A DNA stretch of 64,000 nucleotides from positions 1 to 64,000 of the IMG/VR virus record IMGVR_UViG_3300023115_001620. The stretch is one strand, 5' to 3'. Within the stretch, counting starts at the first letter, position 1, and each line of letters opens with the position of its first letter. The notes beneath the pieces were generated by a model, which saw only the letters and a program-made list of their open reading frames with translations, did no database searches and had not been told where the DNA came from. Shown here one piece after another: positions 3,939 through 18,939 of the stretch. Source of the stretch: a virus. The position numbers and the translations under genes are program-made.

Positions 3939-3963
3939 TATACGCATATTATAGGAGTAACAA

Positions 3964-5193
3964 ATGAATATCGGTTTTATCGGTGTAGGTAAATTAGGCA
4001 TGCCTTGTGCAGAAGCAATTGCACAAAAAGGACATGATGTAACCGGATACGATGTAGTAAAAAGAAAAAGTAATTATATTACAATGTATCCTACAATTCA
4101 AGGTGCTGTTCAAGGCAGAGATATAGTGTTTATTGCAGTTCCTACTCCGCATGATCCTGATTATGATGGTCGAGCTCCTACAGCACATTTAGAACCCAAG
4201 GATTTTTCATATGATATTGTAAATGAAGTTATAGATGAAGCAAATAAACATATGACCAAAGATCAATTGCTTGTATTAATTTCAACTGTACTACCTGGCA
4301 CAGTACGTAGAGAATTTGTACCAAGAATTACCAATCCGAGATTTGTGTATAATCCATATCTTATTGCAATGGGCAGTGTAGCATGGGACATGATTAATCC
4401 AGAAATGGTCATGATTGGCACAGAAGACGGCGCAGAGAATGGTGATGCCAAAGAACTTGTGGACTTTTACAAAACTATAATGGAAAATGATCCACGGTAT
4501 GTTGTAGGCACATGGGACGAGTGTGAATGTATTAAGGTGTTTTACAATACCTTTATTAGTACAAAGATTGGTCTTGTAAACATGATACAAGACGTTGCAG
4601 AATCTCAAGGTAATATTAACGTAGATGTAGTGACTAAAGCACTAGCAGATAGCACAATGCGTATTATGGGTCCACAGTACATGACAGCTGGTATGGGCGA
4701 CGGAGGAGGCTGTCACCCTAGAGACAATATTGCACTAAGATATATGGCTCAAGAACTAGATTTAGGTTATGATATTTTTGATGCAGTAATGAATGCAAGA
4801 GAAATTCAAGCAGAAAATCTTGCTCTTAAATTAGTAGATTTAGCAAATGAATACAACTATCCTATCTATATACATGGCAAAGCATATAAACCTGGCGTAG
4901 AATATTGTGACGGTAGTTACAGTTTATTAGTAGGGCATTACTGTGAAAAGCACGGATTTGCACCTGTATATATTGATCCTTTAACAGGCGATAATAACGA
5001 ACCTAATGAACCGTGTATAATGTTAATGGCACATAGTCCTAGCACAACTTACAAATACATGCAAGAAGAAGGTGATAGTACGGATAAAGTATATTGCAAT
5101 ATACCGTCAGATAGTGTTATAGTTGATCCTTGGCGTAAATACCAAAATCCTAATTGCGAAGTAATTCATTACGGTAACACAAGAAATGTATGA
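3964..5193 (+). CDS. ugd: UDP-glucose/GDP-mannose 6-dehydrogenase family
   Basis: GxGxxG (GVGKLG), FIAVPTP, STVLPGT, GGGCHPRD catalytic Cys, K.YKP. Confidence 0.9.
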   Translation: MNIGFIGVGKLGMPCAEAIAQKGHDVTGYDVVKRKSNYITMYPTIQGAVQGRDIVFIAVPTPHDPDYDGRAPTAHLEPKDFSYDIVNEVIDEANKHMTKDQLLVLISTVLPGTVRREFVPRITNPRFVYNPYLIAMGSVAWDMINPEMVMIGTEDGAENGDAKELVDFYKTIMENDPRYVVGTWDECECIKVFYNTFISTKIGLVNMIQDVAESQGNINVDVVTKALADSTMRIMGPQYMTAGMGDGGGCHPRDNIALRYMAQELDLGYDIFDAVMNAREIQAENLALKLVDLANEYNYPIYIHGKAYKPGVEYCDGSYSLLVGHYCEKHGFAPVYIDPLTGDNNEPNEPCIMLMAHSPSTTYKYMQEEGDSTDKVYCNIPSDSVIVDPWRKYQNPNCEVIHYGNTRNV

Positions 5194-5863
5194 TATTGTT
5201 TTTATATCATATCAAGAACCAAACGCAGATGAAAATTTTACAAAATTAAAACAACGGTTTCCTATGGTAAAACGTGTGCACGGTGTAAAGGGAATACATC
5301 AAGCACATATTGCCGCTGCCAAAAAATGTTTTACTAAGATGTTTTGGGTAGTTGATGCTGATGCACTTATTGCAGATGATTTTAATTTTGATTATGAGGT
5401 AGACGATTACAATTTAGAAACTGTGCATGTGTGGCGCAGTCAAAATCCTATTAATGATCTTGTGTATGGTTATGGCGGTGTAAAACTGTTGCCACGTAAA
5501 CTTACAATTAATATGGATATTAGCAAGCCTGACATGACTACTAGTATTAGTTCAAAATTTAAAGCAGTAAAAGAATTATCAAATATTACTGCATTTAATA
5601 CAGATCCTTTTAACACTTGGAAAAGTGCGTTTAGAGAGTGTGCAAAACTTAGTAGTAAAATAATTGATAGGCAGAAAAATGAAGAAACAGAACAAAGACT
5701 TGAAACGTGGTGTACAATTGGAGAACACAGACCTTATGGTTCCTATGCTCTTGCCGGTGCTAGGGCTGGCCGTGAGTTTGGCATTTCTAATAGTAACAGT
5801 TTACAACTTATAAATGACTTTGATTGGTTAAAGGAGCAGTTTAATGATAAAAACAGATCCTGA
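5186..5863 (+). CDS. GT-A-fold glycosyltransferase-like protein
   Basis: DIVFISY.E, FWVVDAD (DxD), YGYGGVKL, W.SAFRE. Confidence 0.6.
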   Translation: MYDIVFISYQEPNADENFTKLKQRFPMVKRVHGVKGIHQAHIAAAKKCFTKMFWVVDADALIADDFNFDYEVDDYNLETVHVWRSQNPINDLVYGYGGVKLLPRKLTINMDISKPDMTTSISSKFKAVKELSNITAFNTDPFNTWKSAFRECAKLSSKIIDRQKNEETEQRLETWCTIGEHRPYGSYALAGARAGREFGISNSNSLQLINDFDWLKEQFNDKNRS

Positions 5864-6302
5864 TCTAATTACAAATTTAGAGACTAATGCTCTTTGGTTA
5901 GTAATACATCCTGTCACTACTTTCGATAATGAAATACATGAAATATATCCCTGGGTACGTGCAGAAACAATTAATTTTTCAAAAAGAATATTACACTATT
6001 TAAAAAATGTCAAATATAAAGCTATTTCAGCACCTACCGAAGCAATAAGGTTTTTCCATAATTATCCTAATTTGGTTTCCTCTAGTCAATTGCAAGATTA
6101 CATGAAAAAACATAAACTTTCTAATATAGTTTATTGCGGATTTCACTATGGCTTTTGTATACTAAATGATGAAAAAGTTGGTATTAACAAAATGGAAAAA
6201 TACTATACTTGCTTTGTTAAAAAAGATATTTGCCAACTTGCTTGGGAAGCAGATTGGGAAGAATGCGATAAAAAAACAAGCAAAGTTGCACAAATAATTT
6301 AA
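5844..6302 (+). CDS. Hypothetical protein (weak cysteine-hydrolase-like motif)
   Basis: ORF with SD, coupled to neighbours; IVYCGFHYGFCI. Confidence 0.5.
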   Translation: MIKTDPDLITNLETNALWLVIHPVTTFDNEIHEIYPWVRAETINFSKRILHYLKNVKYKAISAPTEAIRFFHNYPNLVSSSQLQDYMKKHKLSNIVYCGFHYGFCILNDEKVGINKMEKYYTCFVKKDICQLAWEADWEECDKKTSKVAQII

Positions 6303-6310
6303 GGATTAAT

Positions 6311-6958
6311 ATGTCAATACATAACAGTGAGTTTTTTGATAACTTTGGACAAGTACTAAACAAATTTCCTGATTTATATCTTACAGATCTTTTTTCAAAA
6401 GGACAGATGGAATCTAAACGTTGGTTGGTTAATGAACTTGAAAAAATTAACCAACCATTAGGAACTGTGTTTTTATGTGCTGGTTGGTATGGCAGTTTGG
6501 CAACATTTCTATTTGAAAGTAAATTAGAAATAGAAAAGATTAGAAGTTTTGATATAGACAAGCATTGTGCAGCAATCGCAGAAACATTTAATCGCACAAA
6601 AACAATGGATAATTGGAAGTTTAAGGCTAGTACACTAGATATTTCAAAATTGGATTATCCTACGACTTACAGTACATTTAGATCAGATGGATCAAGTTTA
6701 GAACTTACAGAAATGCCAAATACAATTATTAATACTAGTTGTGAACATATTGACAACTTTGATGTATGGTTTAACAATATACCTGCAGGAACATTTGTTA
6801 TATTACAGTCAAATGATTACTTTGATTTACCAGAACACGTAAATTGCTGTATAGATTTAGAAGACTTTTCTAAAATGACACCTATGCATAAAGTATATTA
6901 TCAAGGGCAAATTGCACTATCTAAGTACAATAGATATATGCGTATAGGAATAAAATAG
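6311..6958 (+). CDS. Class I SAM-dependent methyltransferase
   Basis: AGWYG motif I, SFDID, IINTSCEH. Confidence 0.75.
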   Translation: MSIHNSEFFDNFGQVLNKFPDLYLTDLFSKGQMESKRWLVNELEKINQPLGTVFLCAGWYGSLATFLFESKLEIEKIRSFDIDKHCAAIAETFNRTKTMDNWKFKASTLDISKLDYPTTYSTFRSDGSSLELTEMPNTIINTSCEHIDNFDVWFNNIPAGTFVILQSNDYFDLPEHVNCCIDLEDFSKMTPMHKVYYQGQIALSKYNRYMRIGIK

Positions 6959-6989
6959 TCACAAGCAGCTATACACGTTTCAAACCTCA

Positions 6990-6996
6990 ATAAATA
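6990..6996 (+). promoter_or_regulatory. T4-like late promoter motif ATAAATA upstream of the P450 cluster
   Basis: Intergenic, 26 nt before ATG 7023. Confidence 0.55.
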
Positions 6997-7022
6997 CGTA
7001 TATTATTTACATAAGAGATAAA

Positions 7023-8270
7023 ATGCGAAAAAATGATTTTGAGATAGTAAATCCAGAATTTCTTTATAAAATGGACGAACACGCAGAATGCTTGTTTGCT
7101 ACAGAGCCTCGCGGTTTTTATTGGCACCCAGTATATAAACATTGGATTATATTCTCAATGGATAAACTTAAAGAAGCTTCTAAAATGAATGAGGATTTTA
7201 GTTTAGCAACCACGTCTCCTGCTCCTTTTGATCCAACACCCTTAGGCGGAATATGGAGAGCAGGATATGCACTTACTCTCCGAGAAGGCCCACATCATCA
7301 TTTAGCAAAGAAGCATAGTCTAGACTGGCTCAAGCGCAGATCTACCGACTTTACTAAAATCTTTACTAACAACTTAAATAATGCCCTTGATAGTATACAA
7401 AAGGGAAAATCTTTTAAAGCATACGATATAATTGGTAAAACAGTTACACATACACAGATACAAAGTATAGAATTTCCTTGGCATATACTAGATGTTAATG
7501 AGGAGTTTGTCAAGGATGCTTATTTTCAGTGGATGAAACCTGGCGGTGTTTTTAGCAATTTTAATCCTGATTTTGATTACGATAAACCTGTTGCAGAAAC
7601 AACTGAATTTTACAGCATGTTTGCACAAATAGTAGATAAAACAATTGACTATTATCATATTGATCGACCTGATGCAGACACAATGATTAACATGACAAAA
7701 AATCTTAGTGACAAGCAATCGGAATATAATGACAACCCTAAAAAGATGGCTTATATGCTTATACAATCATTATGGACTGTTGTAATACCTACATTTTCAT
7801 TAAGTTTATATCAAAATATCTTGATGAACTTTTGTAAATATCCAGAAATTGCTGCAAGAGTCAAAAACGATAGATCTCTTGTTCCTTCTTTTGCTCGTGA
7901 AAGTTTACGCTTAGGACCTATGAAAGGCGGCATAAGAGATATTACACGCACCTTAGATTATCATGGATACAAATTTGATAAAGGCGGCAGAATACTCCTT
8001 TATACATACGGAGCAAATAGAGACCCAAAATATTTTAAAGATCCACTTGAATTTAAATTAGAAAGAGATAATGAACCATTGCCTGTTACTCTAGCATACG
8101 GTCCGCATCATTGCACTGGTGATTTTCTTGTAAAACATTTTCTAGAAATTATCACTAACGCTGTATTAGATAGGTTTAGTGAATTTGAAATTACAAATCA
8201 ACCAGAACTGCTACCCGCTATGTTTGGTTCTACAACTGTGTATAAAGACCTTGAGTTAAAATTTTCATGA
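7023..8270 (+). CDS. Cytochrome P450
   Basis: ExxR (ESLR), ANRDPKYF.DP.EF, heme-ligand loop AYGPHHCTG; 415 aa. Confidence 0.9.
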   Translation: MRKNDFEIVNPEFLYKMDEHAECLFATEPRGFYWHPVYKHWIIFSMDKLKEASKMNEDFSLATTSPAPFDPTPLGGIWRAGYALTLREGPHHHLAKKHSLDWLKRRSTDFTKIFTNNLNNALDSIQKGKSFKAYDIIGKTVTHTQIQSIEFPWHILDVNEEFVKDAYFQWMKPGGVFSNFNPDFDYDKPVAETTEFYSMFAQIVDKTIDYYHIDRPDADTMINMTKNLSDKQSEYNDNPKKMAYMLIQSLWTVVIPTFSLSLYQNILMNFCKYPEIAARVKNDRSLVPSFARESLRLGPMKGGIRDITRTLDYHGYKFDKGGRILLYTYGANRDPKYFKDPLEFKLERDNEPLPVTLAYGPHHCTGDFLVKHFLEIITNAVLDRFSEFEITNQPELLPAMFGSTTVYKDLELKFS

Positions 8271-8782
8271 TAAAAACAAAACAATTATATAATGCAACCC
8301 ATGAGTTAATTACGTTTATACAGGAGTGTGATAAATTAGGATATAAAAATAATAACACATTAGAAGCAATGAAGTTTGATTGGTGTTTAGCAAATGGTGG
8401 ATCTTGGTATGCTACATTTGTTGATGATAAAATTGTTGGTATAAGTGGCTTGCACAAATTTGCTGATGGTTATCGTGCACTTTTTAGAGGCTGCCAGCTG
8501 CACCCTATTCCAGGAGGATTATCTAAAAATCATATGAATTGCTGGATGTTTTATTATCATTTACCTTTAGTTATAGATCGTGTAGACGGACCAATCTATA
8601 TTACAACCAACACAGATAACGATGCAAGTGGAAAAATGTTAAAATTAAATAAATTATACTCTATATTAGAAAAATCAGGCATAGTAGATTTTGTTGCTGA
8701 AGAAGAAGTGTTTTACACTAATCAAAATATATGGAAATTAAATAATAAAATTTATTTAGACGCAAGGAGTAAAGTAAAATGA
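8267..8782 (+). CDS. GNAT-like protein
   Basis: DDKIVGISG.H....R.LFRG pattern; ATGA-coupled to the P450. Confidence 0.45.
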   Translation: MIKTKQLYNATHELITFIQECDKLGYKNNNTLEAMKFDWCLANGGSWYATFVDDKIVGISGLHKFADGYRALFRGCQLHPIPGGLSKNHMNCWMFYYHLPLVIDRVDGPIYITTNTDNDASGKMLKLNKLYSILEKSGIVDFVAEEEVFYTNQNIWKLNNKIYLDARSKVK

Positions 8783-9906
8783 AGATTGCAATTTTAGGCG
8801 CTGGCAGTGCCGGCATTCTTACTACTGGTTGTATCCTTAAAGATTTTAAAAACAGAAATATTGAATGTGAAGTTACCCATATTTTTGATCCTAATATTCC
8901 TATACTAGGAGTAGGAGAAAGCACAACATCAGAAGTGACATTTGCAATAGGACAAGCATTTAATTTTATTTTTGCTACTGAATCAGACGAAATAAAAAGC
9001 ACTACTAAGTATGGTACACACTATATTGACTGGAGAGAAAAAGACATAATTTTTCCTTTTCAATCAGGTTATCATGCTGTTCATTTTGATGCTAGAGACT
9101 TTGCAAAAATGGGACTAGAAAGATTAAAAAGAATATATCCAAATTATAAATTATTACAGGAAAGCTGGCAAGAGTCTAGTGCAGAAAATTATGATTATGT
9201 AATTGATTGTCGCGGACGTCCCCAAGATTTCTCAGATTATAAGGAATGTAATTTAATACTTAATAGTGCTTTAGTTTACGATGATCCTGAACCTAGTGAT
9301 TTTGGATTTACTAGACATGTAGCGCACAAATACGGATGGATGTTTGTAATTCCTTTAAAGCACAGAACATCACACGGTTTCTTATATAATAAAGATTTCT
9401 GCAATAGGCAGGAAGCAGAAGCAGAACTCATACGTATTACAAACGCAACAGAAAAAGATATTGAAAATTTTAGAACATTTACATTGAAGCCTTACTACTG
9501 TAAAAAGACAGTGAATGGACGTATGTTGAAAAACGGTAACAGAGCTGTATTTTTTGAGCCTATGAGTGCTAATTCTCTTTATATGGCTGTCAAAAATACA
9601 CAAATTTTATCTCAATATATGAGGGGAGAAATTAGTCAAGACGAAGCTAACAAATTGTGCATCCTAAACTATCGTGCAGTTGAAGATTTAATTAATCTAA
9701 TTTACCACGGTGGTTCTATATACGACAATGATTTTTGGCAGTGGACAAAAAAACGTGCTTCAAAAAATCTGCAAGAAACTGACGTCTTAAAAAGATATGT
9801 AAAAGATCAAGAAGATGAAATGTTTAAAACTATTACAGAAAGATTTATGGGGCACCATGTTTTACGATATGTAGACAAAGAATTTGAGTTTAATTATTTT
9901 GAGTAA
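8779..9906 (+). CDS. Flavin-dependent halogenase (tryptophan halogenase family)
   Basis: GAGSAG, GVGEST, TKYG (candidate catalytic Lys), VIDCRG, GWMFVIPL, GN...FFEPMSA. Confidence 0.8.
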   Translation: MKIAILGAGSAGILTTGCILKDFKNRNIECEVTHIFDPNIPILGVGESTTSEVTFAIGQAFNFIFATESDEIKSTTKYGTHYIDWREKDIIFPFQSGYHAVHFDARDFAKMGLERLKRIYPNYKLLQESWQESSAENYDYVIDCRGRPQDFSDYKECNLILNSALVYDDPEPSDFGFTRHVAHKYGWMFVIPLKHRTSHGFLYNKDFCNRQEAEAELIRITNATEKDIENFRTFTLKPYYCKKTVNGRMLKNGNRAVFFEPMSANSLYMAVKNTQILSQYMRGEISQDEANKLCILNYRAVEDLINLIYHGGSIYDNDFWQWTKKRASKNLQETDVLKRYVKDQEDEMFKTITERFMGHHVLRYVDKEFEFNYFE

Positions 9907-9909
9907 ATT

Positions 9910-10674
9910 ATGTCTTTAAACACTTGGTATGATAATTTTGACGAACAATACTTCCGCGATATAATACACACAGGAGTAACAATACTTACGTCTGGCTCTT
10001 CGGGAGAACCTAAAGAAATTTACCAACCTCCAAGTAAAATCAATGCAGATGCAAAATTTGCAATAGATATTCAAGGTATAAATGTTACAAGTAGTGTTTA
10101 TACATGTTTGAACCCTGTAAGAGCAGGCGGCTTATTTGCGCAAACTATCCCTGCATTACTTGTAGGAGCAGATGTTGATCTAGATAAGTTTAATCCTTAC
10201 GAGTATGTTAGAGTTGCCAATAAATACACACACACGCATCTGACACCTAAACAAGCAAAAGCTGTGATGTTAACAAAGGGTTTTAGAGATCTCGATCTAA
10301 CGGGTAAGACTTTTTTGATAGGATCTGAACCTGTCACTTATGATATTATAGAGGCATTTGTACACAGAGGAGCAAAAGTAATTACAATTTGGGGAATGAC
10401 CGAAATAGGAGTCAATGCTATTATGGAGGTTTTTAATAGTATTGAAGATGTAAATAGTATGAAAGAAATCACGCCTAACAATTCGACAATTCTTGGCAGT
10501 ATTTTTAATTGTAATTGGCGTATCATTGATTCGTGTTTGTGGGTATGCGGAGATATATGTGTATACGACGGATGGTTTAATACTAATGATACTGTGATTG
10601 AAAAGGATGGATATTTGTTTTATACTGGTAGAAGTAACGCTATAGTAGATTTTGCTAATCCAAAAAAAGGTTAA
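9910..10674 (+). CDS. AMP-binding (ANL/acyl-CoA ligase-like) enzyme, minimal form
   Basis: TSGSSGEPK (A3), GSEP, WGMTE (A5), WFNTND (A7-like), YTGR (A8); no C-terminal subdomain. Confidence 0.8.
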   Translation: MSLNTWYDNFDEQYFRDIIHTGVTILTSGSSGEPKEIYQPPSKINADAKFAIDIQGINVTSSVYTCLNPVRAGGLFAQTIPALLVGADVDLDKFNPYEYVRVANKYTHTHLTPKQAKAVMLTKGFRDLDLTGKTFLIGSEPVTYDIIEAFVHRGAKVITIWGMTEIGVNAIMEVFNSIEDVNSMKEITPNNSTILGSIFNCNWRIIDSCLWVCGDICVYDGWFNTNDTVIEKDGYLFYTGRSNAIVDFANPKKG

Positions 10675-10675
10675 T

Positions 10676-12697
10676 ATGAAAATAAAAAATACATATGATA
10701 TTATTATAATGACAGAAGGAAGTGATCCTGTTTTTAATGTTGCAAGAGCATTAGGTGGGTACAAAATTGCTTCTGCACTGCGTAACGAAGGGTATAGTGT
10801 ATTTGTATTAAGTAACTTTTCTCACTTTATACAAAAAGGTAATATTAATCAAATCCTAGATAAACTGATAGGTGACAATACTTTGTGGGTAGGATTTAGT
10901 TCTACACTGTTTATGAGATCACAAAAAGATGTTTATAGAAAACGTCATACAAGAGATACAGCAAAACAGAATATGTTATGGCATTGGCCTACTAATGACA
11001 TTGATGTAAAATCAATGACAGATTACATACGTTCTAAAGGAATAAAAACTGTCTATGGTGGTATGATGGATGCACATCGTGTGCCATTAGTTAGTGATTG
11101 TATAGACTATTATGTAGTAGGAATGGGCGAACATGCAGCTTTACACATAACAGATCATATAAAAAATGGTACTATACTTAATTATAATCCTGCTTACGGA
11201 TTGAAGCCAAAAGTAATTGATTACGATCAAAGAGGAGAGCTTTTTGACTTTAGGAATGCGCACATAAATTATGTGCCAGAAGATTTTTGGAATCCAGAAG
11301 ATGGCATGGGTATAGAGTTTGGTCGAGGATGTATTTTTAGATGTAAGTTTTGTGCATATCCATTGATTGGTAAGAAGAAAGGAGACTTGTCCTTTTTAAG
11401 AGAAAAAGAACGGATAAAAGATGAACTAAAACAAAACTATGAATTATATGGCACTACTAAGTATGTAATTATAGATGATACATTCAACGAGCAAACAATA
11501 AAATTACAAGCAATAGCAGATGCTATAGATGAAATAGATTTGCCAGAACAGTTACAATTTGCAGCTTTTATTAGAATTGACTTAATAGCAAGATACCCTG
11601 AACAACTAGAACTACTTAAGAAAATAAATGTACGTGCTTGGTTTTTAGGTGTAGAAAGTTTAAATTATGAGTCAGCAAAAGCAATTGGAAAAGGATGTCC
11701 TAAAGAAGTTATATTTGAAACAATCAAAAATGCAAAAGAAAAATTTAACGGATCATTAAGTGTATACGGCAGTTTTATTGCAGGACTTCCGCATGATAGT
11801 AGAGAAACTATGGATAAATGGACTGCCGAACTTGTAGAGAACAAACATTTATTTGATGCATTTTCGTTTAGTCCTCTAGAACTAGGAACTGCATCTCTCC
11901 TTTCTAAAAATCCAGAACTATATGGATACACAATTGATAAATCTGCAGACACTGCAAACAAGTGGACAAACGAGCATTGGTCCGCAGATGAAACAGTGGA
12001 ATATGTAAAGCATTTGCAAAGCACAATTTTAGAGGACATCAGAGTGTCTACTTTCTTTTTGATGTTTTATCAATGTTTAGGTTTTACTTTTGATGAGCTT
12101 AGAGTAATGACATTCACAGAACTTTTTGCAAATAGTAAGGTTAGGAGAAAAGCTAGGCAGTATTTAGAAAAAAGTTATTATTCTAAAGTTGAAAACTTTT
12201 TAGGTGTAGAACCTACCCAACCTAATATCAAATACATGAAAAATCTATCAATAGAGCAAAGCATTAAAGACAGTTTGAAAGAAGAATTTTTACAAGTAAA
12301 AAATTTAGTAGATGTTCCTGAATTAGAAGTTCTCAAGGCAGTAGAGGATATTACAGAATGTAAAACTGCTAATGCTATTGTACAAAATGTTAAAAAAATT
12401 ATTGGCTGTGAAATTTATCCTAGCTTTTTTATTCAGGCTGCAGATAGTTATTTAAAACCTAGAACTGAATCGGGTGCTACTGGTATACAAATAGTGCTTA
12501 ACTTAGATGCTCCTATCACCTGGGACGAAGCAGTTGATGTATACTATGACTGTGCTGTATTAGATCTTAGCAACATGCATAGTATACAAACTGATAAAGA
12601 AGACAGGATTTTCTTACATATCACAATTTTAGACAAACCATATGAAGATGTGTTGCAAATTCTTAGTGAAAATGAAAGTGAGGTTTTTAATGTTTGA
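10676..12697 (+). CDS. B12-binding-domain radical SAM protein with C-terminal DSBH-like extension
   Basis: N-terminal R.LG.YKIA..LR..G, VGFSST, GG...V.G.GE; RGCIFRCKFC; DDTFN; GVESL; FIAGLP; ATG 10676. Confidence 0.85.
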   Translation: MKIKNTYDIIIMTEGSDPVFNVARALGGYKIASALRNEGYSVFVLSNFSHFIQKGNINQILDKLIGDNTLWVGFSSTLFMRSQKDVYRKRHTRDTAKQNMLWHWPTNDIDVKSMTDYIRSKGIKTVYGGMMDAHRVPLVSDCIDYYVVGMGEHAALHITDHIKNGTILNYNPAYGLKPKVIDYDQRGELFDFRNAHINYVPEDFWNPEDGMGIEFGRGCIFRCKFCAYPLIGKKKGDLSFLREKERIKDELKQNYELYGTTKYVIIDDTFNEQTIKLQAIADAIDEIDLPEQLQFAAFIRIDLIARYPEQLELLKKINVRAWFLGVESLNYESAKAIGKGCPKEVIFETIKNAKEKFNGSLSVYGSFIAGLPHDSRETMDKWTAELVENKHLFDAFSFSPLELGTASLLSKNPELYGYTIDKSADTANKWTNEHWSADETVEYVKHLQSTILEDIRVSTFFLMFYQCLGFTFDELRVMTFTELFANSKVRRKARQYLEKSYYSKVENFLGVEPTQPNIKYMKNLSIEQSIKDSLKEEFLQVKNLVDVPELEVLKAVEDITECKTANAIVQNVKKIIGCEIYPSFFIQAADSYLKPRTESGATGIQIVLNLDAPITWDEAVDVYYDCAVLDLSNMHSIQTDKEDRIFLHITILDKPYEDVLQILSENESEVFNV

Positions 12698-12914
12698 ACA
12701 ATTATTTTACATATACTATTTTCCTGTAACTTTTTTTGCAATATATACAATTGAAAAAGAAGTAAAATGTAATACCTTTGTTGGTAGTGTTTGGAGTAGA
12801 GTTACCTTACTTGAGCGTTTAGTTGCATGTATGATACCTTTGTATAGAGAATTTATACTAATAATCTTGTATATCCAAAGCCGGAAACCTAGTTGGTTTC
12901 CTAAGCCTTTGTAA
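12690..12914 (+). CDS. Small membrane protein
   Basis: GAGG SD before ATG 12690; two hydrophobic stretches. Confidence 0.55.
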   Translation: MFEQLFYIYYFPVTFFAIYTIEKEVKCNTFVGSVWSRVTLLERLVACMIPLYREFILIILYIQSRKPSWFPKPL

Positions 12915-12923
12915 GGAAACGCA

Positions 12924-13454
12924 ATGTCATATTATGAAAACGTCGACCTACCATCCTTTTTAAATTTGTATACCCAGCTACAACAGCTAGATGTTGAATG
13001 GACTGGAAATCAAATTTGTATGAATGCTCCGCAAAATTTAACTTATGATACTACATTTGGAGTTGGCAGATTATTAAAAGAGTACAAGTTTGGAGATAAG
13101 ATAGGACAAAATGAAGTAATTAAATCTTTAAAGGACGGAAATTGGCATTTGTGCGATATATTTGTAGATACACAATTTGAAGAATTATTTAATGCTGTTA
13201 AGTCTAGGTATAAAATAGGGAGGATACGTCTTATGAAATCGGCTCCTAATACTTGTTTAGCATGGCATCAAGATCCTGTACCTAGACTACACTATCCTAT
13301 CAAAACGCAGGAAGGCTGCTTAATGGTAATAGAAGACGAAGTAAGACACTTAGAACAAGATAAATGGTGTCTTACACGCACTACACACGCTCATACAGCA
13401 CTCAACGGCAGCAAAGAGGATCGTATACATATTGTTGCTGATATATTTCCATGA
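12924..13454 (+). CDS. Asp/Asn beta-hydroxylase-like 2OG-Fe(II) oxygenase
   Basis: GRIRLM, WHQD (HxD), RLHYPIKT, HTALNG...RIHIV. Confidence 0.8.
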   Translation: MSYYENVDLPSFLNLYTQLQQLDVEWTGNQICMNAPQNLTYDTTFGVGRLLKEYKFGDKIGQNEVIKSLKDGNWHLCDIFVDTQFEELFNAVKSRYKIGRIRLMKSAPNTCLAWHQDPVPRLHYPIKTQEGCLMVIEDEVRHLEQDKWCLTRTTHAHTALNGSKEDRIHIVADIFP

Positions 13455-14050
13455 TATTTAGAAAAACTAATACATTTTCAATTTTTGATCAATTTGTAGA
13501 TGACTACAATGGCAAAACAATATTAGACTTCGGAGGTAACAGAGGTAATCTTATCGCTTCTAGCGAGGGTAAAATAAGTCAGGAAAACTATACTTGTTTA
13601 GATATAAGTAAACAAGCTCTTAGTGTTTTGCACAAGGATTTTCCTCTGGTCAAAAGTATTCATTGGAATAAATACCATTCTTACTATAATCCTACAGGAA
13701 ATATAAAAGAACCATTTCCTAAATTACAATTTTATGATATCGTATTTGCAAATAGTGTGTTTACACATCTAACTCTAAAAGAAACACTATATTGCTTAGA
13801 GCAAATTACACAATATACTAATAGAATAGCTTTTACTTATATAGATCCTAGTAACAATCAATTTTTAAAAAAATTCAATGAAAAGTATTGTAAATTGTCA
13901 TTTGATAATACCGATGAATCATATACAAACGACGAAAATGGAATATTTTGGAGTGCATTTAAGACAGAATATTTACTACATTTATTACCGCATACTAATA
14001 TTAAACATGGCAGTACTAATTGGTTTAACTTTATCGACATCACAATTTAG
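13451..14050 (+). CDS. Class I SAM-dependent methyltransferase
   Basis: ILDFGGNRG, LDIS, YDIVFANSVFTH. Confidence 0.85.
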   Translation: MIFRKTNTFSIFDQFVDDYNGKTILDFGGNRGNLIASSEGKISQENYTCLDISKQALSVLHKDFPLVKSIHWNKYHSYYNPTGNIKEPFPKLQFYDIVFANSVFTHLTLKETLYCLEQITQYTNRIAFTYIDPSNNQFLKKFNEKYCKLSFDNTDESYTNDENGIFWSAFKTEYLLHLLPHTNIKHGSTNWFNFIDITI

Positions 14051-14071
14051 TTATGTATCATAACTAAATGA

Positions 14072-14078
14072 ATAAATA
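14072..14078 (+). promoter_or_regulatory. T4-like late promoter motif ATAAATA
   Basis: Intergenic, upstream of AGGAG and ATG 14102. Confidence 0.55.
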
Positions 14079-14101
14079 TAAAGTATAAAAAGGAGATTAC
14101 A

Positions 14102-14320
14102 ATGACAACACTTACAGCACATCTTCATAAAGAAGGAGCAGGCGGCAATTATTTCGGACATTTAAAAATAGGGCTTAATATGATCATATGGTCTGCCGCA
14201 GTATTTGTTACAAGCACAATTCACGGAATTTTTCCGTTTTTATTAAACGATTCATCTATGTATTGTGCAAAAAAACTAGCAAGTTTAGTAGAGCAAACAT
14301 TTAGTCATCACGAGGCGTAA
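14102..14320 (+). CDS. Small His-containing membrane protein (DUF6356-like)
   Basis: HL...YF.H...IHG.FPFL pattern. Confidence 0.6.
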   Translation: MTTLTAHLHKEGAGGNYFGHLKIGLNMIIWSAAVFVTSTIHGIFPFLLNDSSMYCAKKLASLVEQTFSHHEA

Positions 14321-14321
14321 A

Positions 14322-14594
14322 ATGAAGTTTGGAGATTTAGGCAAGTATGGATGGTTAGTGAACACTGAACATCTTAGAGAAGTCCGTAGTGGCTATTTTA
14401 AGCATATGTGGTATGCGATTAAAATTTCCTCTTGGGGATTACTTAATCCTATTACAGGTTATATTCATGCCTTTTTTCCGTTTTTATTTCCAAATACGCC
14501 GCATAGGATAGCAATGCGTACTGTTGAGATGGCCGAGGAAATGATAGCAGAATTAAAAGCTACAATTGAAGCAGAAGACGCTGCAAAGAAGTAG
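14322..14594 (+). CDS. Small His-containing membrane protein (DUF6356-like), paralog of 14102
   Basis: HL...YFKH...IHA.FPFL pattern. Confidence 0.6.
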   Translation: MKFGDLGKYGWLVNTEHLREVRSGYFKHMWYAIKISSWGLLNPITGYIHAFFPFLFPNTPHRIAMRTVEMAEEMIAELKATIEAEDAAKK

Positions 14595-14613
14595 GCAAAA
14601 AAAATTTAGTCAT

Positions 14614-14640
14614 AAAAAAACGCCCAACGGGCGTTTTTTT
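14614..14640. terminator. Bidirectional intrinsic terminator
   Basis: AAAAAAACGCCC-AAC-GGGCGTTTTTTT between convergent genes. Confidence 0.9.
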
Positions 14641-14650
14641 ATCTTATGTA

Positions 14651-16117
14651 TTAATATAAGTCTATCCATCCTGCTGTGGAGTTTGAGACGCCGCCGCCGG
14701 CTAAACCTGTGTCACTTACATAGCCTACAAATTTTTGAGTATCTTGTAAAAACGCAAGCATTCCTTCTACAGGCGATGTTATTGCAGCATCACGTGTTGC
14801 TGCATCTGCATAAACGCCAGGTTTAATTGCACCTTGAACGTCTAGTGTTGCTGTAGGATTAATTGTGCCTATACCAAATTGTTGATCTTTCCATGAGTAG
14901 TAGTTTGCACCATTCGCAAAATCGGCAGTTGAAGTTGATGCAACAAGTATTGCATTTTCTCTTGCTTGGATAATACCTGTAATTAATTGACCATTTACAT
15001 CATCACGTGTAAATCTAATCATTCCATATGTTAAAGCTGTATTACCACTTAGATCTGCTTCGCTTGTTCTAATAAAGTCTAATTGACTTCTTTCGTTGAC
15101 TGCGTCAATTTTGATGACGCTTTGACTTGCATTTTCATTGTTACCAAATGTTACAATGTTTGTTGAAGATTGGTATGTAGGTGCTTTGATTGTGCCAGCA
15201 GTTCCGTCGATAATCATATCACTATCATCTGCAAATACAGAGCCAACAACATCACCGTAAAGTGTTGCAGTATCATGATTTAGTATGACATTCAGATCTG
15301 GACCAACGACTGTTCCGCGTATGGGACCATCTACACTACCAATAAATGTAGGAGTAGCACCGCCTTGAATTATGACTTGGCCGTTTTCGCCGCGCCTCAA
15401 ATCACCAGTAAAGTTATCTAGTACTGTATATGTATCTGTAGGATCTCTAACGTCTACCATTGCTGCTTTAGTAAACTCATCAATCATTAAGTTTCCTAAG
15501 CCATCATAAAGGCTACCGTAAAAATCACCTCTATGTGTATTTGTAACAGGATCGACAATAATTGTGCTGTCATTGCCTGCAATAGTTAGTGTATGTGTTT
15601 GTTCTTGCGATAAAATACGATCTGTAAGGGATGTTGCAGGAGTATTTGCCCATGCTGTACCGTCATAGTACATAATATCAAAGTTTTTTGGATTATCTAA
15701 AACTACGCCTGTTATATCGTCGATTGTAGTTAATGAATTGATTTTATTTGCAAGTGAATCAATACGTATGTTTTTCCAATTTAAACCGTCATAAGAAATG
15801 ATATCAAAGTTTTCTGAGTTTGAGACACTAAGATCTGTTAGGTCATCTAGTTCTAACGCAGACTGTCTATTGTTCCATTCGTTAGTTAATGAGTTGTAAA
15901 CAAGGACATCGCCGTCTTGCAAACCTGCTATGTCAGTATCAAGTAATCCTGCTACTGTGTTAGAAACTTCTCCAGATGCTGCAATAAGTATGCCACCTAA
16001 CGTGGATCCGTCACCCACATAAAGTGATTTTGTATCTGTAGCATAAATTAATTCGCCTTCTAACGGCGTTATTAGCTGACGTTCTGCATCAGTTCCACGT
16101 CTTAAACGTAATGCCAT
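14651..16117 (-). CDS. Tail-fibre/virion structural protein with Mtd-like N-terminal domain
   Basis: MALRLRRGT..R....P.EGEL.Y.TDT..LYVGDG; three internal L.D....D...Y....W.N repeats; GIGT..P...LDV.G fibre motif. Confidence 0.75.
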   Translation of the reverse strand: MALRLRRGTDAERQLITPLEGELIYATDTKSLYVGDGSTLGGILIAASGEVSNTVAGLLDTDIAGLQDGDVLVYNSLTNEWNNRQSALELDDLTDLSVSNSENFDIISYDGLNWKNIRIDSLANKINSLTTIDDITGVVLDNPKNFDIMYYDGTAWANTPATSLTDRILSQEQTHTLTIAGNDSTIIVDPVTNTHRGDFYGSLYDGLGNLMIDEFTKAAMVDVRDPTDTYTVLDNFTGDLRRGENGQVIIQGGATPTFIGSVDGPIRGTVVGPDLNVILNHDTATLYGDVVGSVFADDSDMIIDGTAGTIKAPTYQSSTNIVTFGNNENASQSVIKIDAVNERSQLDFIRTSEADLSGNTALTYGMIRFTRDDVNGQLITGIIQARENAILVASTSTADFANGANYYSWKDQQFGIGTINPTATLDVQGAIKPGVYADAATRDAAITSPVEGMLAFLQDTQKFVGYVSDTGLAGGGVSNSTAGWIDLY

Positions 16118-16147
16118 TCTATTACTCCTGAACTCTGTTGTTAAATA

Positions 16148-16154
16148 TATTTAT
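16148..16154 (-). promoter_or_regulatory. Late promoter ATAAATA inside an SD-masking inverted repeat
   Basis: On - strand: CCTGAATT..GATAAATA..AGTTCAGGAG..ATG. Confidence 0.65.
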
Positions 16155-16169
16155 CTAATTCAGGTGATA

Positions 16170-16466
16170 TTATTTTCTTTTTTTTATAAATGATCGCACT
16201 TGCGATTTTACATCTTTAACAACTCTTTCCGAGTCAATTTTGAAGTCAACTTTTACAATTGCATCATCATATTCTTCAAAAAAAGCATTCAATGATTCTT
16301 CGGCATCATCAAATTCGGGACCTTTAATATCAATTTCCCATACATCACCGTTATCGAAATATACAACCGCAGAATTTAGATATTCAATAGGCACAGCTTT
16401 TATTTCTATATCTTCGAAAACTTCTGGCCAATGGTTGATAATTTCTTGCGGGAGCTTATCAGGCAC
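16170..16466 (-). CDS. Hypothetical acidic protein
   Basis: ORF coupled to upstream gene. Confidence 0.65.
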   Translation of the reverse strand: MPDKLPQEIINHWPEVFEDIEIKAVPIEYLNSAVVYFDNGDVWEIDIKGPEFDDAEESLNAFFEEYDDAIVKVDFKIDSERVVKDVKSQVRSFIKKRK

Positions 16467-17034
16467 TTTCTGGAGACTTCGCTTTGGATGCTTTTTTCTT
16501 AGTAGGCACTAATTCTTCTGCTTGTTCTCTAAGAGCCTTTGCTTCTTTGAATAGTGCATCTGCTTGCGAACGATATTGAGCAGCCAAGTCTTCATTAGAT
16601 AAAACAGTATCATCAGAAACCTCTGCTACTACGTTAGCAGTTTCACCTGTAGCAGGTTTCGGCGCCAACTCTGCTACTGTAACACCTTCTTGCTCTGCAA
16701 TAATTTGATTAAGTTCTGCAAGATTAATAACACTTTTGGTAGTAGGAGTCATTTCAATTTGCTTAGTTTCTAGTTTCACCATTTTACCTGTTCTGTGAAA
16801 ACTTGCAAGCATATTTCTACCATCTGGTAGTGTTGTTCTTGCCATTGCATCAGCTAAATGAGTGCTGTCTTGGCCCGAAGCTGATTCTACTACTTTCATT
16901 AGTGCATCGTGATCTTCGGCATTTAGATTTTCTGTTGTAACTATTACGCAATTTTCTGGCTCGTTAGGTACAACTCTGTATGCTACAATTACTTTACGAC
17001 CGTTCGTAATTAATCTTCCTACATGTTTTAACAT
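16459..17034 (-). CDS. Hypothetical protein
   Basis: AAGGAG SD, 191 aa. Confidence 0.75.
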   Translation of the reverse strand: MLKHVGRLITNGRKVIVAYRVVPNEPENCVIVTTENLNAEDHDALMKVVESASGQDSTHLADAMARTTLPDGRNMLASFHRTGKMVKLETKQIEMTPTTKSVINLAELNQIIAEQEGVTVAELAPKPATGETANVVAEVSDDTVLSNEDLAAQYRSQADALFKEAKALREQAEELVPTKKKASKAKSPESA

Positions 17035-17043
17035 TTTATCTCC

Positions 17044-17280
17044 TTAGGCAGCAGGTGCCTGTTGCTGTTGTGATGCTACAGCAGTTAGGAATGTATCTAG
17101 TTTTTGATACGTTTGGCCTACTGCAACCATTTCATTTGGCTTAAATGCGCCACGCTGGCTTGCAACATCAATAATACTTTTTAACGCTTGTAAATCATTT
17201 ACTGTTAAGTCTGGTGATGTAGAAGCAGGTGCTTCTTGTGTACCTTCGTTAACTGCTTGAGTTTCTACTTCGTCGCTCAT
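17044..17280 (-). CDS. Hypothetical protein
   Basis: AGGAG SD; CTAAATA motif upstream. Confidence 0.75.
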   Translation of the reverse strand: MSDEVETQAVNEGTQEAPASTSPDLTVNDLQALKSIIDVASQRGAFKPNEMVAVGQTYQKLDTFLTAVASQQQQAPAA

Positions 17281-17317
17281 ACTTTTATCTCCTATATAGT
17301 ATATATACGTAGTTTAT

Positions 17318-17599
17318 TTAGTTGTACTTTAAATGTGGACAAGCTAACATGAAATAACTCATTTCCTTGTTATCTTCAAATCCAACAGATATACAAATAC
17401 CTTTTTCTTTTTTAGAATTTACCGTAAGGCGTTTGCCTACGTAAAATCTCTTTTTACAATTTTTATTGATCCATTTTATTAAAGATCCTTCTAGATTATA
17501 TGTAGAAGGTATATCTACATATTCAAAATGCGGCGGAGCCACATCTAACCTTCTGATCCTTAATACATCTAATGGATTGATAGTTTTATTTTTTATCAT
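17318..17599 (-). CDS. Hypothetical protein
   Basis: ATGA-coupled to the vWA gene. Confidence 0.65.
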   Translation of the reverse strand: MIKNKTINPLDVLRIRRLDVAPPHFEYVDIPSTYNLEGSLIKWINKNCKKRFYVGKRLTVNSKKEKGICISVGFEDNKEMSYFMLACPHLKYN

Positions 17600-18939
17600 G
17601 CCGCTTCGTCGTAATGGACACTAGTGCCAAATGGTGATTGCAAATTTTTATCTGCGTTAGAATGAATTACGAAAACAGTTTCACAGTAATCTGGATCACC
17701 CCAGCTATCCCAAGCATAACCGTCTGTAAACATAATTAATTTTTTAGGTTGGATATCATTTTCTTTCATATAAGTCCAATTAACCATAAAGTCAGTGCCA
17801 CCACCACCATACACTTCGTAGTCTGTCAAATCCTCACCACCATCTGCTGTAAAGTCTTGCTCGTTATATACAGCAGTATCAAAACACCACAATTTGATTT
17901 TGTAGTCTTTGTACTGATCCATAATACCTTTGACTTCGCTAAGGAATATTTTTGCTTGTGCACTACCAATAGAGCCTGACATATCAATGCATACACATAC
18001 ATCAATTGTTTCGTCAAAGTTCATACCTGGAAGAACTGCTCCAGTATGCCAGCCTTTGCGTGAAGGACGCATAAATGTATAATCACTTTTAATTATTGAT
18101 TGAATTTGTTGTTGCAGGATTTCTCGCCAATTCATTTTAGGCTCAGTGAGCTCTTGAATCATGCGTTGAACACCTGCTGGAGTATTACCTGCGCCGGCTG
18201 CCTGTGCACTAGACAAAACGTTTTCTTTTATTTCGTCTTTGATCTTTTTAAGTTCTTCTTTAGAATACTTTGGTCTTTTGCTACTAGTGCCGTGACCATT
18301 TGAGTCTTTATCCTCGCCGTTGTCACCATCAGCTTCCCCATCTGCATCTTCTGAATCAAGATGCTCGTCTAGCATTTCACCTTCTTTGTCTAATTGATCA
18401 AGAAGTTCTTGTAACTCTTTTCCAGCTTCTTTAGCTTGCTCAAACAGTTTATCGTAAATTTCTTCTGACGTGTCTGCATCGTATTTAAAGTCTTGAAAGC
18501 AGTCTACAATGCTAGGCTTTTCGCCAATACGATCTCTTACAAGTAAGTTATTAACTTTGTAGTCTGCGGCAATATTGTAGAGCATAGGATTACGATCACC
18601 GCGACGTTCTAAGTGATCAAAAACCATATGTAATATTTCATGTGCAATAACAAATTCAATTTCTTTGTTTGTCATTGCATTAAAGAACTGGGTGTTGTAG
18701 TAAAGGTTACGACCGTCTACTGCGGCAGTAGGTAACCAATCGTCTGCTGCCAGTATTTGCAAACGTGTAGCCATATTACCAAAAAACGGATGCCTAAGTA
18801 GCAAACCTACTCGTGCAACAATAATGCGGTCATAAACTTCAACACGCATTTCTTCTAATTGTTCTGGAGTGATATTGGGGTCAGGTTGCCAGTTTTTTAG
18901 TTTACTAGCAGTTTTTTCTGTAGACATTTGCAGTACCAT
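17596..18939 (-). CDS. Metallopeptidase plus vWA domain protein (DUF2201-like; MoxR partner)
   Basis: TAAVDG, HEILH (HExxH), DMSGS (MIDAS), GGGGTDF, FTDG. Confidence 0.85.
   Translation of the reverse strand: MVLQMSTEKTASKLKNWQPDPNITPEQLEEMRVEVYDRIIVARVGLLLRHPFFGNMATRLQILAADDWLPTAAVDGRNLYYNTQFFNAMTNKEIEFVIAHEILHMVFDHLERRGDRNPMLYNIAADYKVNNLLVRDRIGEKPSIVDCFQDFKYDADTSEEIYDKLFEQAKEAGKELQELLDQLDKEGEMLDEHLDSEDADGEADGDNGEDKDSNGHGTSSKRPKYSKEELKKIKDEIKENVLSSAQAAGAGNTPAGVQRMIQELTEPKMNWREILQQQIQSIIKSDYTFMRPSRKGWHTGAVLPGMNFDETIDVCVCIDMSGSIGSAQAKIFLSEVKGIMDQYKDYKIKLWCFDTAVYNEQDFTADGGEDLTDYEVYGGGGTDFMVNWTYMKENDIQPKKLIMFTDGYAWDSWGDPDYCETVFVIHSNADKNLQSPFGTSVHYDEAA

Follow-up and report, generated by a model that had tools for sequence, protein, structure and literature searches.

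Pelagimyophages and cyanomyophages carry a 'host recognition cluster', a non-syntenic, fibre-adjacent region with glycosyltransferase and sugar genes and with radical SAM cassettes that can be exchanged (Zaragoza-Solas et al. 2020, PMC7029224). The same phages often encode AspH-type hydroxylases (PMC7029224). Cyanophage halogenases provide a further point of comparison: PMC10452541 lists genes called 'tryptophan halogenase' for some 20 of the 153 cyanophage genomes it covers and describes VirX1, from cyanophage Syn10. The subject here is an operon of ten genes, extending from 7023 to 14594, in the first 64,000 nucleotides (nt) of IMG/VR virus record IMGVR_UViG_3300023115_001620. This whole 64-kb stretch is called the window; the record is 91 kb long, with an estimated completeness of 23%. 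An earlier note, made from the sequence alone, had taken the operon for a natural-product-like tailoring cluster. Our leading interpretation, to which we give somewhat less than an even chance, is that it is one operon under selection, specifying a tailoring and 'activate-and-transfer' pathway, located in a fibre-adjacent hypervariable island, with a product that is most likely attached to a surface.

All ten open reading frames (ORFs) lie on the + strand. The layout of the operon and its signals is as follows.

6990-6996, + strand: ATAAATA motif resembling a late promoter, 27 nt upstream of the P450 start
7023-8270, + strand: cytochrome P450 of an orphan phage clade (PF00067, 3.9e-11, 42.8 bits, cut-off 22.8)
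8267-8782, + strand: GNAT-fold protein, 171 residues, partner of the mini-ANL (AlphaFold2 model and Foldseek)
8779-9906, + strand: compact flavin-dependent halogenase, 375 residues (PF04820, 4.6e-31, 108.6 bits; phrog_2928, 1e-62)
9910-10674, + strand: mini-ANL adenylating enzyme, 254 residues (PF00501, 1.4e-10, 41 bits, cut-off 29.9)
10676-12190, + strand: radical SAM (S-adenosylmethionine) enzyme, class-B-like, with an N-terminal Rossmann-like domain and a CxxxCxxC core (PF04055, 1.6e-15)
12191-12697, + strand: cupin/double-stranded β-helix (DSBH) domain, 2-oxoglutarate (2OG)-oxygenase-like, C-terminal to the radical SAM core (AlphaFold2 model and Foldseek)
12690-12914, + strand: small membrane protein, about 74 residues (homologs in relatives, dN/dS, hydrophobic segment)
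12924-13454, + strand: AspH-family Fe(II)/2OG β-hydroxylase, 176 residues (PF05118, 2.7e-10, 40.8 bits, cut-off 22.6)
13451-14050, + strand: class I SAM-dependent methyltransferase (Methyltransf_12, PF08242, 2e-08)
14072-14078, + strand: second ATAAATA motif, 24 nt upstream of the first DUF6356 gene
14102-14320, + strand: DUF6356 paralog a, 72 residues (PF19883, 23.9 bits, just below the cut-off)
14322-14594, + strand: DUF6356 paralog b, 90 residues (PF19883, 39.8 bits, cut-off 24.4; dN/dS 0.04-0.16)
14612-14642, both strands: bidirectional intrinsic terminator, common to the operon and the convergent fibre gene

Neighbouring ORFs overlap by 4 nt at 8267-8270, 8779-8782 and 13451-13454, and the other junctions within the operon are gaps of 1-9 nt. 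The sole real spacer is the 51 nt ahead of 14102, which holds the second ATAAATA. The terminator is strong, with folding energies of -15.7 kcal/mol on one strand and -17.7 kcal/mol on the other (z about -4.6). Coordinates, junctions and folding agree with the earlier note, which had described ten co-oriented, mostly tightly coupled genes behind an ATAAATA and ended by a bidirectional terminator. Its enzyme assignments also held up well: nine are right or nearly so, that of the GNAT at the level of the fold, and the tenth ORF does encode a small membrane protein.

The ordered core, P450-GNAT-like-(halogenase)-mini-ANL-radical SAM, is found in 17 IMG/VR contigs, recovered by searches with the radical SAM, P450 and ANL proteins, at 59-96% amino acid identity. 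The order is invariant wherever a contig covers the core, and the methyltransferase gene always lies downstream. Pairwise ratios of nonsynonymous to synonymous substitution (dN/dS) are 0.03-0.31 for all ten genes. Scattered homologs that do not co-occur would, by the earlier note, have refuted its reading; instead, the block recurs in order in these related viral contigs, under purifying selection and with its flanks changing. Identities to the closest relative are uneven, i.e., 94% for the P450, 95% for the GNAT-like protein, 92% for the radical SAM enzyme, 79% for the halogenase, 81% for the ANL enzyme and 75% for the methyltransferase. This mosaic indicates that alleles are swapped while the operon frame is retained. 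The complete enzyme set envisaged earlier is not a fixed one. The halogenase is an optional cassette member, missing from 4 of the 17 contigs; the AspH-like gene and the DSBH domain are absent in one lineage, and the DUF6356 pair is absent in one. The operon is best explained as a swappable cassette assembled from modules circulating among phages.

The pairing of the mini-ANL with the GNAT-fold protein is the best-supported mechanistic element, and it suggests formation of an acyl-adenylate followed by carrier-free transfer. The PF00501 match of the mini-ANL spans only profile positions 168-357 of 384. The protein begins 27 residues ahead of the P-loop and stops 13 residues past the hinge; that is, it covers motifs A3-A8 only, and both the N-terminal third (the A1-A2 region) and the whole C-terminal subdomain with the A10 lysine are absent. 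Within the segment that is present, the motifs TSGSSGEPK (A3 P-loop), WGMTE (A5), NTND (A7 TxD) and TGR (A8 hinge) are conserved across 16 sequences. The mini-ANL is not a broken gene; it belongs to a family of 278 clusters at 90% identity that shares its short length (236-276 residues in nearly all of the 120 listed) and a conserved C-terminus, P-(K/R)-K-G. The terminal lysine of this motif could stand in for the A10 lysine.

The partner protein has no match in Pfam or NCBIfam, so the GNAT call of the earlier note stands for the fold and not for the sequence family. The AlphaFold2 model has a pLDDT (predicted local distance difference test) score of 87. Foldseek returned 54 matches in the PDB at E <=1e-3, and every one of the approximately 40 listed is a GNAT, the top matches all being GNAT acyltransferases at a template-modelling (TM) score of about 0.55. 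A search of the ESM Atlas led to viral N-acetyltransferase-like clusters. The loop after strand 4, PGGLSKNH, is modelled with low confidence and fits the Q/R-x-x-G-x-G/A motif loosely. The family is small, with 221 representatives in 1.84 billion.

The mini-ANL matches 194 IMG/VR stretches, from which 80 viral loci were analysed; 64 of the 80 lack a P450. A GNAT-like gene lies at most 8 kb away in 44 of these 64, and is adjacent in 28, in either order. A DUF6356 gene is present in 17 and adjacent in 10. At locus L161 the order is DUF6356-GNAT-ANL-DSBH. A metagenomic protein of 578 residues, P0454, consists of an ANL-like part with a canonical A10-like sequence, PNGKLDYKKL, fused to a GNAT-like domain. 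Judged by gene neighbourhood, the mini-ANL and the GNAT-like protein form a pair well beyond the cassette. A complex prediction for the two scored 0.00 and counts neither for nor against binding. The idea that the GNAT-like gene supplies the missing N-terminal part of the ANL enzyme is ruled out by the GNAT fold. A search of viral contigs for related loci with protein P0047 as the query returned nothing.

Other proteins were seen with this pair or its families. In the metagenomic protein P0456 (613 residues), a partial match to the GNAT-like family comes after two domains of the Laminin_G_3 (ConA-like lectin) type, an arrangement that hints at a link between that family and carbohydrate-binding or virion-surface proteins. 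Near the ANL-GNAT pair in L160, L161 and L163 there are recurrent proteins of 230-310 residues with a P-loop-like motif, TGAPGSKWS, and at the same loci the pair is accompanied by another family, starting FILANxGAGG. Neither family has a Pfam match.

The P450 belongs to a clade of about 40 clusters at 66-100% identity. The next-best matches are about 30% identical over one third of the protein, and no near relative of the clade was found among 5.8 billion proteins. The Cys-ligand loop, GPHHCTG, and the ExxR motif (RE-x-LR) are invariant in 41 clade members. Equally invariant is the I-helix stretch SLWTVVIPT, which contains no acid-alcohol pair (A/G-G-x-D/E-T) and no acidic residue. The protein is a member of the superfamily whose chemistry may be atypical.

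The halogenase retains the GxGxxG motif (GAGSAG), the catalytic Lys (TTKYG, aligned to the LooH Lys) and the Glu of FFEP; its counterpart of WxWxIP reads WMFVIP. It matches PF04820 up to profile position 431 of 458, with an internal deletion relative to solved enzymes, and at 375 residues it lacks the C-terminal substrate-binding module of the 500-550-residue Trp halogenases. As the earlier note had said, phage halogenases are known singly: those of cyanophages stand alone among unrelated genes.

Translation of the radical SAM enzyme likelier starts at ATG 10676 than at TTG 10652. The cysteines of its CxxxCxxC core, C219, C223 and C226, do not vary among 20 diverse homologs. In NCBIfam, the enzyme is closest to B12-radical SAM families, namely PhpK, ladderane, HpnJ and methyl-coenzyme M reductase (MCR) Gln methyltransferase, at about 1e-16. 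These matches are weak and far below cut-offs: the alignments begin at residues 101-144, and the scores are at most about 60 bits against cut-offs of 251-650. The cobalamin-binding family PF02310 has no match in the window protein and is carried by some homologs at 30-35% identity; B12 dependence is thus presumed from family likeness. The nearest solved structure is 9CCB, which is cited in work on MgmA, a radical SAM enzyme that methylates a glutamine of methyl-coenzyme M reductase, and which may be MgmA.

The radical SAM family is widespread in viral contigs, with more than 570 related stretches. Homologs at 30-36% identity have compact halogenases as neighbours in 9 viral loci and AspH or 2OG-Fe(II) oxygenases in others, one of the oxygenase examples being a PhoH-linked, cyanomyophage-like array. 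In a contig of a Bdellovibrionales metagenome-assembled genome (MAG), a homolog lies beside 2OG oxygenases and a fatty-acid-desaturase-family gene. No other cassette genes were found near radical SAM homologs in bacterial genome contigs, except for an AspH-like fragment on a 2-kb contig. A Gammaproteobacteria MAG contig, L033 (QZLE01000063.1), carries six paralogs of the family within 11 kb (3-11269). They are 26-30% identical to the window protein; five are in tandem on one strand and the sixth is divergent.

The C-terminal 165 residues of the radical SAM protein form the DSBH domain (AlphaFold2 pLDDT 85.6), the Foldseek matches of which include PHD2, AspH, HygX, SnoN and cupins. In L023, L024 and L026, DSBH is a separate ORF, and the AspH-like gene lies between it and the radical SAM core. 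Of 8 sequences, 6 retain the HxD...H...R residues. R-T-E stands in place of the His-x-Asp site in the window and in its closest relative, so the window copy probably does not bind iron; it looks like a naturally inactivated yet retained oxygenase domain. An hhalign comparison of the DSBH domain with the AspH-like family found no similarity, which indicates that the two oxygenases are not recent duplicates.

In the AspH-like protein, the iron triad (His115, Asp117 and His157) and Arg167, which binds 2OG, are the same in all 10 sequences compared. Among solved structures the nearest is 7V4F (182 residues, deposited under the name 'Beta-hydroxylase'), an entry that a paper on Cpz10, the caprazamycin hydroxylase, cites. 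The methyltransferase is the most divergent cassette gene, at 39-75% identity between contigs. The P450, halogenase, radical SAM, AspH and methyltransferase proteins all have intact catalytic motifs.

The small membrane protein was annotated as a tenth ORF of 90 residues, and a start at 12690 is likelier. Its homologs in relatives, where the gene is located after the AspH-like gene, share the motif ER-x-V-x-C-x-IP-x-YRE. Its dN/dS is 0.12-0.31, and it has one clear hydrophobic segment (Kyte-Doolittle value 2.04). The two DUF6356 paralogs and a distant copy have five invariant residues in common, namely three His, a Tyr and a Pro. Since their hydrophobicity is borderline, a membrane-protein label is not justified for the DUF6356 proteins. 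A tie of the DUF6356 pair to the halogenase, suggested by their joint absence in one lineage, was rejected, as DUF6356 adjoins ANL in loci that have no halogenase.

We suggest that these genes act as three modules. In the first, the mini-ANL would adenylate a carboxylate, and its GNAT-fold partner would pass the acyl group straight on to an acceptor amine or hydroxyl. Direct transfer is proposed because the mini-ANL has no C-terminal subdomain and no carrier protein is present. The His-rich DUF6356 proteins and the small membrane protein would be accessories. The second module would tailor the same substrate: the optional flavin halogenase would halogenate an electron-rich ring, the class-B-like radical SAM enzyme would act probably by C-methylation, the AspH-type and DSBH oxygenases would hydroxylate, and the methyltransferase would take part as well. 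The orphan P450 would be the third module. The likeliest product would be an unusual tailored acyl or aryl group on a surface structure, i.e., on a glycan or a protein belonging to the virion or to the infected-cell envelope. The upstream sugar genes and the island position favour such surface decoration. What the data show are the gene identities, the intact catalytic motifs, the constant order, the purifying selection and the ANL-GNAT linkage; the single common substrate, the reaction types, the direction of transfer, the acceptor and the timing are what we infer here. The scheme in its most explicit form has a late virus-encoded pathway build a halogenated, C-methylated and hydroxylated acyl or aryl group, which a carrier-free mini-ANL/GNAT ligase, with DUF6356 as a His-rich cofactor protein, attaches to the phage surface or the host envelope; in that form it is possible but doubtful.

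A late timing of expression would follow from the likeness of ATAAATA to the T4 late promoter. The window has 14 copies of ATAAATA against 33 expected. By a reading of sequence context, 9 of the 14 are 12-33 nt upstream of start codons of listed ORFs and in the coding direction; these include the copies at 6990 (P450), 14072 (first DUF6356) and, on the minus strand, 16154 (fibre). The T4 late-promoter octamer, TATAAATA, has one copy in the entire window against 9 expected. The rarity of both sequences fits counter-selection of a functional signal. In relatives, ATAAATA is at -33 of the P450 or upstream of an extra first gene of the operon, and it is kept 25-38 nt before the DUF6356 genes in five of them.

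Near-identical DNA is present in 18 salt-marsh metagenome runs. Four salt-marsh metatranscriptome runs contain contigs at least 99% identical to the window on the P450, GNAT, radical SAM, AspH, DUF6356 and fibre genes. In two metatranscriptome runs, contigs cover only 14104-14605, from just past the 14072 motif to the terminator, a weak hint that this motif is active. In its family-B DNA polymerase, the window shares 43-50% identity with the giant phages Atu_ph07 and Phosso, with a Vibrio phage of 349 kb and with E. coli phages of 350-380 kb, and the source is therefore a giant phage and not a pelagimyophage. The cassette carriers are best explained as one clade of giant T4-like phages, uncultured and from salt-marsh and marine settings.

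Against GenBank phages, Megablast with the cassette or with a 20-kb part of the window gave no match, and the P450 and the radical SAM enzyme have zero homologs among 50,697 GenBank phage records. An Rfam scan of 5000-18000 was likewise negative. Literature searches on DUF6356, on phage P450 with halogenase and radical SAM, and on jumbo phage P450 did not find the system described; in the literature found, neither the operon, nor a phage P450 of the clade recognized here, nor the putative mini-ANL/GNAT pair appears. The earlier note had counted on a phage ferredoxin, and the 91-kb record, about 23% of the genome, contains neither a 2Fe-2S ferredoxin (Fer2, PF00111) nor a flavin reductase.

The island around the cassette has a fibre neighbour, variable content and sugar and glycosyltransferase genes, the marks of a fibre-adjacent hypervariable island. 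Two flanking features are described here.

6311-6958, + strand: u9, 215 residues, loosely linked to the cassette, with no family match
14651-16117, - strand: tail-fibre-like gene with an Mtd_N domain (PF18454, 5.2e-10), convergent and outside the operon

The sugar genes, at 554-5193, encode a UDP-glucose dehydrogenase, a DegT aminotransferase, a hexapeptide acyltransferase and glycosyltransferase-like proteins. Only the window and its closest relative have sugar genes upstream and the fibre gene directly downstream, so the glycan genes, which the earlier note had placed just upstream, are not constant neighbours; the fibre gene, its convergent neighbour, is adjacent in some lineages. Elsewhere, the flanks are extra radical SAM genes, QueC-like PP-loop proteins, a GT34-like gene accompanied by a u9 homolog, or a gene for a subtilase-domain protein and, after it, the fibre gene. 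Flanks and accessory genes vary among contigs with P450s that are 74-94% identical. Homologs of u9 (26-36% identity) lie at most 8 kb from the cassette in most relatives, usually beside a GT34-like protein of 570-586 residues. PHROGs and PDB sequence searches with the flanking genes u1-u9 gave nothing useful.

A block of the fibre gene, a gene named d2, a VWA/metallopeptidase gene and a MoxR ATPase gene adjoins ANL islands in the window and in 13 distant viral loci. In the window the minus-strand segment 17596-20133 encodes a DUF2201 metallopeptidase plus VWA protein and an AAA ATPase of the MoxR type. With 80-88% conservation across contigs, they form a constant anchor beside the variable island and the fibre gene. 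The DUF2201/VWA protein is called an 'HNH endonuclease' in PHROGs, a label without support from Pfam. An extra AspH-family paralog sits between the fibre gene (Mtd_N) and d2, directly beside the fibre, in L007, L008 and L023. Some cassette contigs have a gene for a QueC-like PP-loop protein between the methyltransferase and DUF6356 genes (L016:17179-17877 and L019:17109-17756), and others have paralogs upstream. Lastly, in about 9 cassette contigs the operon is opened, after ATAAATA, by a Ser/Thr-rich ORF of about 100 residues with a conserved C-terminal motif, GW-x-ISF-T/S-PETADL. It lies just upstream of the P450 in L018, L019, L020 (9683-9985), L024 and L026. The ORF is absent from the window's 91-kb record and has no family match, and the ESM Atlas gave sub-threshold leads only.

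Several observations weigh against a surface-decorating pathway. The reaction assignments all rest on family resemblance. All 17 cassette contigs are from related phages, so conservation of order is in part shared descent, and the dispensable halogenase, AspH, DSBH and DUF6356 genes mean that loosely coupled steps fit as well as a tight pathway. The activity of the mini-ANL is uncertain, as it is devoid of the A10-lysine subdomain that canonical ANL enzymes require for adenylation; the GNAT-like protein lacks a Pfam match and any clearly recognisable acyl-CoA motif; and the ANL-GNAT fusion is known from one metagenomic sequence. Only the window and its closest relative have glycan genes next to the cassette, and the RNA-library contigs are assembled sequences that may stem from DNA carry-over. 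Some of these points lend themselves to the view that there is no common pathway at all, the operon being a pile of independent auxiliary enzymes in a recombination-prone island, held together by recent shared descent. Halogenase, 2OG oxygenase and AspH genes do occur singly in cyanophages, several cassette genes are optional, the mosaic identities imply frequent exchange, and the radical SAM homologs of bacterial contigs are unaccompanied by other cassette genes. Yet order and translational coupling are kept down to 59% identity, where synonymous divergence is saturated and the flanks have been replaced. Moreover, the ANL-GNAT(-DUF6356) and radical SAM-halogenase/oxygenase adjacencies recur in unrelated phage contexts, and the P450 clade is known only from the cassette. 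Independent accumulation is improbable.

Other explanations accept a pathway and differ on its target. The enzymes might halogenate, cross-link, methylate, hydroxylate and acylate a phage protein (the fibre, DUF6356 or the relatives' first protein of about 100 residues), in the manner of peptides that ribosomes make and that are modified after translation (RiPPs). Each enzyme type of the cassette has a RiPP counterpart. AspH-type enzymes act on protein residues, and their extra paralogs adjoin the fibre gene in three lineages. The radical SAM enzyme has weak NCBIfam matches to RiPP C-methyltransferases, ApyD and ApyO, besides its resemblance to 9CCB. The first ORF of those 9 or so contigs has a conserved C-terminal motif and diverges faster (38-51% identity) than the enzymes, but several cassette contigs, like the 91-kb record, do without it. 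The window's own small genes, the membrane miniprotein and the two DUF6356 genes, are all conserved like the enzymes; DUF6356 in particular evolves as slowly as the enzymes, has a copy in one viral locus with neither P450 nor halogenase, and occurs also in Caulobacter, in the control set. The fibre shows no obvious repeat or target-marking motif; no RiPP recognition element, leader peptidase or exporter was seen; and the nearest AspH-family structure, 7V4F, is cited in the paper on Cpz10, an enzyme that acts on a nucleoside small molecule. We regard protein modification of this kind as unlikely. The last point speaks instead for a free small molecule that diffuses (such as an antibiotic, a signal or a compound that binds metal) and that is made in infection from a metabolite of the host, as does the action of VirX1 on small aromatic molecules in vitro (PMC10452541). 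The small membrane protein could provide export or immunity. That the enzyme set belongs to a complete natural-product pathway, as the earlier note implied, is not borne out: no scaffold-forming enzyme, carrier protein or recognisable precursor is present, and no PP-binding, condensation or ketosynthase domain was found in the window genes at 3-23239 or in the relatives' accessory genes. With the scaffold synthase, the carrier protein, the precursor, the protease and the transporter all missing, a natural-product or RiPP cluster of the classical kind is disfavoured. A regulator is absent too, the conserved ligase and transferase pair implies attachment to an acceptor and not release, and the fibre-adjacent island and late-type motif suggest virion or envelope roles. 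Despite the resemblance of the enzyme set to those that tailor bacterial secondary metabolites, a free product is quite unlikely. Very improbable, finally, is a pathway that activates, hydroxylates and methylates a fatty-acyl or isoprenoid lipid of the host envelope, altering the surface in infection. The family PF05118 includes the lipid A hydroxylase LpxO, the operon holds a membrane miniprotein, and the Bdellovibrionales radical SAM homolog adjoins a desaturase-family gene and 2OG oxygenases. The weak best matches point the same way (ANL to long-chain fatty-acid-CoA ligases, radical SAM to ladderane and hopanoid B12 enzymes, P450 to CYP152, GNAT-like to LCAT), but they are far below family cut-offs and generic for their superfamilies. 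Halogenases of the PF04820 type act on aromatic substrates, and acyl carrier protein and lipid-synthesis genes are absent.

If the operon does specify one pathway, phages maintain and exchange whole tailoring operons, beyond single borrowed metabolic genes. The mini-ANL and GNAT proteins would then be a new minimal solution to acyl activation and transfer, of biocatalytic interest. The position of the cassette beside fibre genes, together with its variability among close relatives, suggests that the product may tune host recognition or resistance to host defences. A product of that sort would make the question of marine-phage 'hypervariable islands' testable with defined genes. It would, if the proposal is true, be a new kind of viral chemical decoration affecting host recognition, made with a P450 lineage known from phage cassettes only.

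Known systems resemble the cassette in part. Proteusin RiPP sets of the polytheonamide-like type combine B12-radical SAM C-methyltransferases, an Fe/2OG hydroxylase and an N-methyltransferase. The window's operon likewise unites a class-B-like radical SAM enzyme, a 2OG hydroxylase and a SAM methyltransferase; unlike the proteusin sets, it has no leader precursor, epimerase, dehydratase or protease, and the NCBIfam RiPP models score far below cut-offs. In mycobactin lysine acylation, which uses the fatty acyl-AMP ligase MbtM, the carrier MbtL and the GNAT MbtK, an ANL enzyme activates the acid and a GNAT acylates the amine. The cassette shares this ANL-plus-GNAT logic, with similarity at the superfamily level only. 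It differs in having no carrier protein, an ANL of 254 residues without the C-terminal subdomain, and a GNAT-like protein outside the curated families. The window halogenase belongs to the same Pfam and PHROG family as the cyanophage halogenases; it is 26-35% identical to the compact ones, with the GxGxxG, Lys and Glu kept, and only distantly similar to the 531-residue VirX1 (E 4.5e-10). In contrast to the lone cyanophage genes, it is part of a coupled operon, and elsewhere in viral contigs its kind lies beside class-B-like radical SAM and 2OG oxygenase genes. As for the host recognition clusters, the P450, halogenase, adenylating enzyme, GNAT pair and defined operon are not described there, the searched text of PMC7029224 mentioning neither P450 nor halogenase; like those clusters, however, the cassette lies between sugar genes and a fibre gene and is swapped among relatives.

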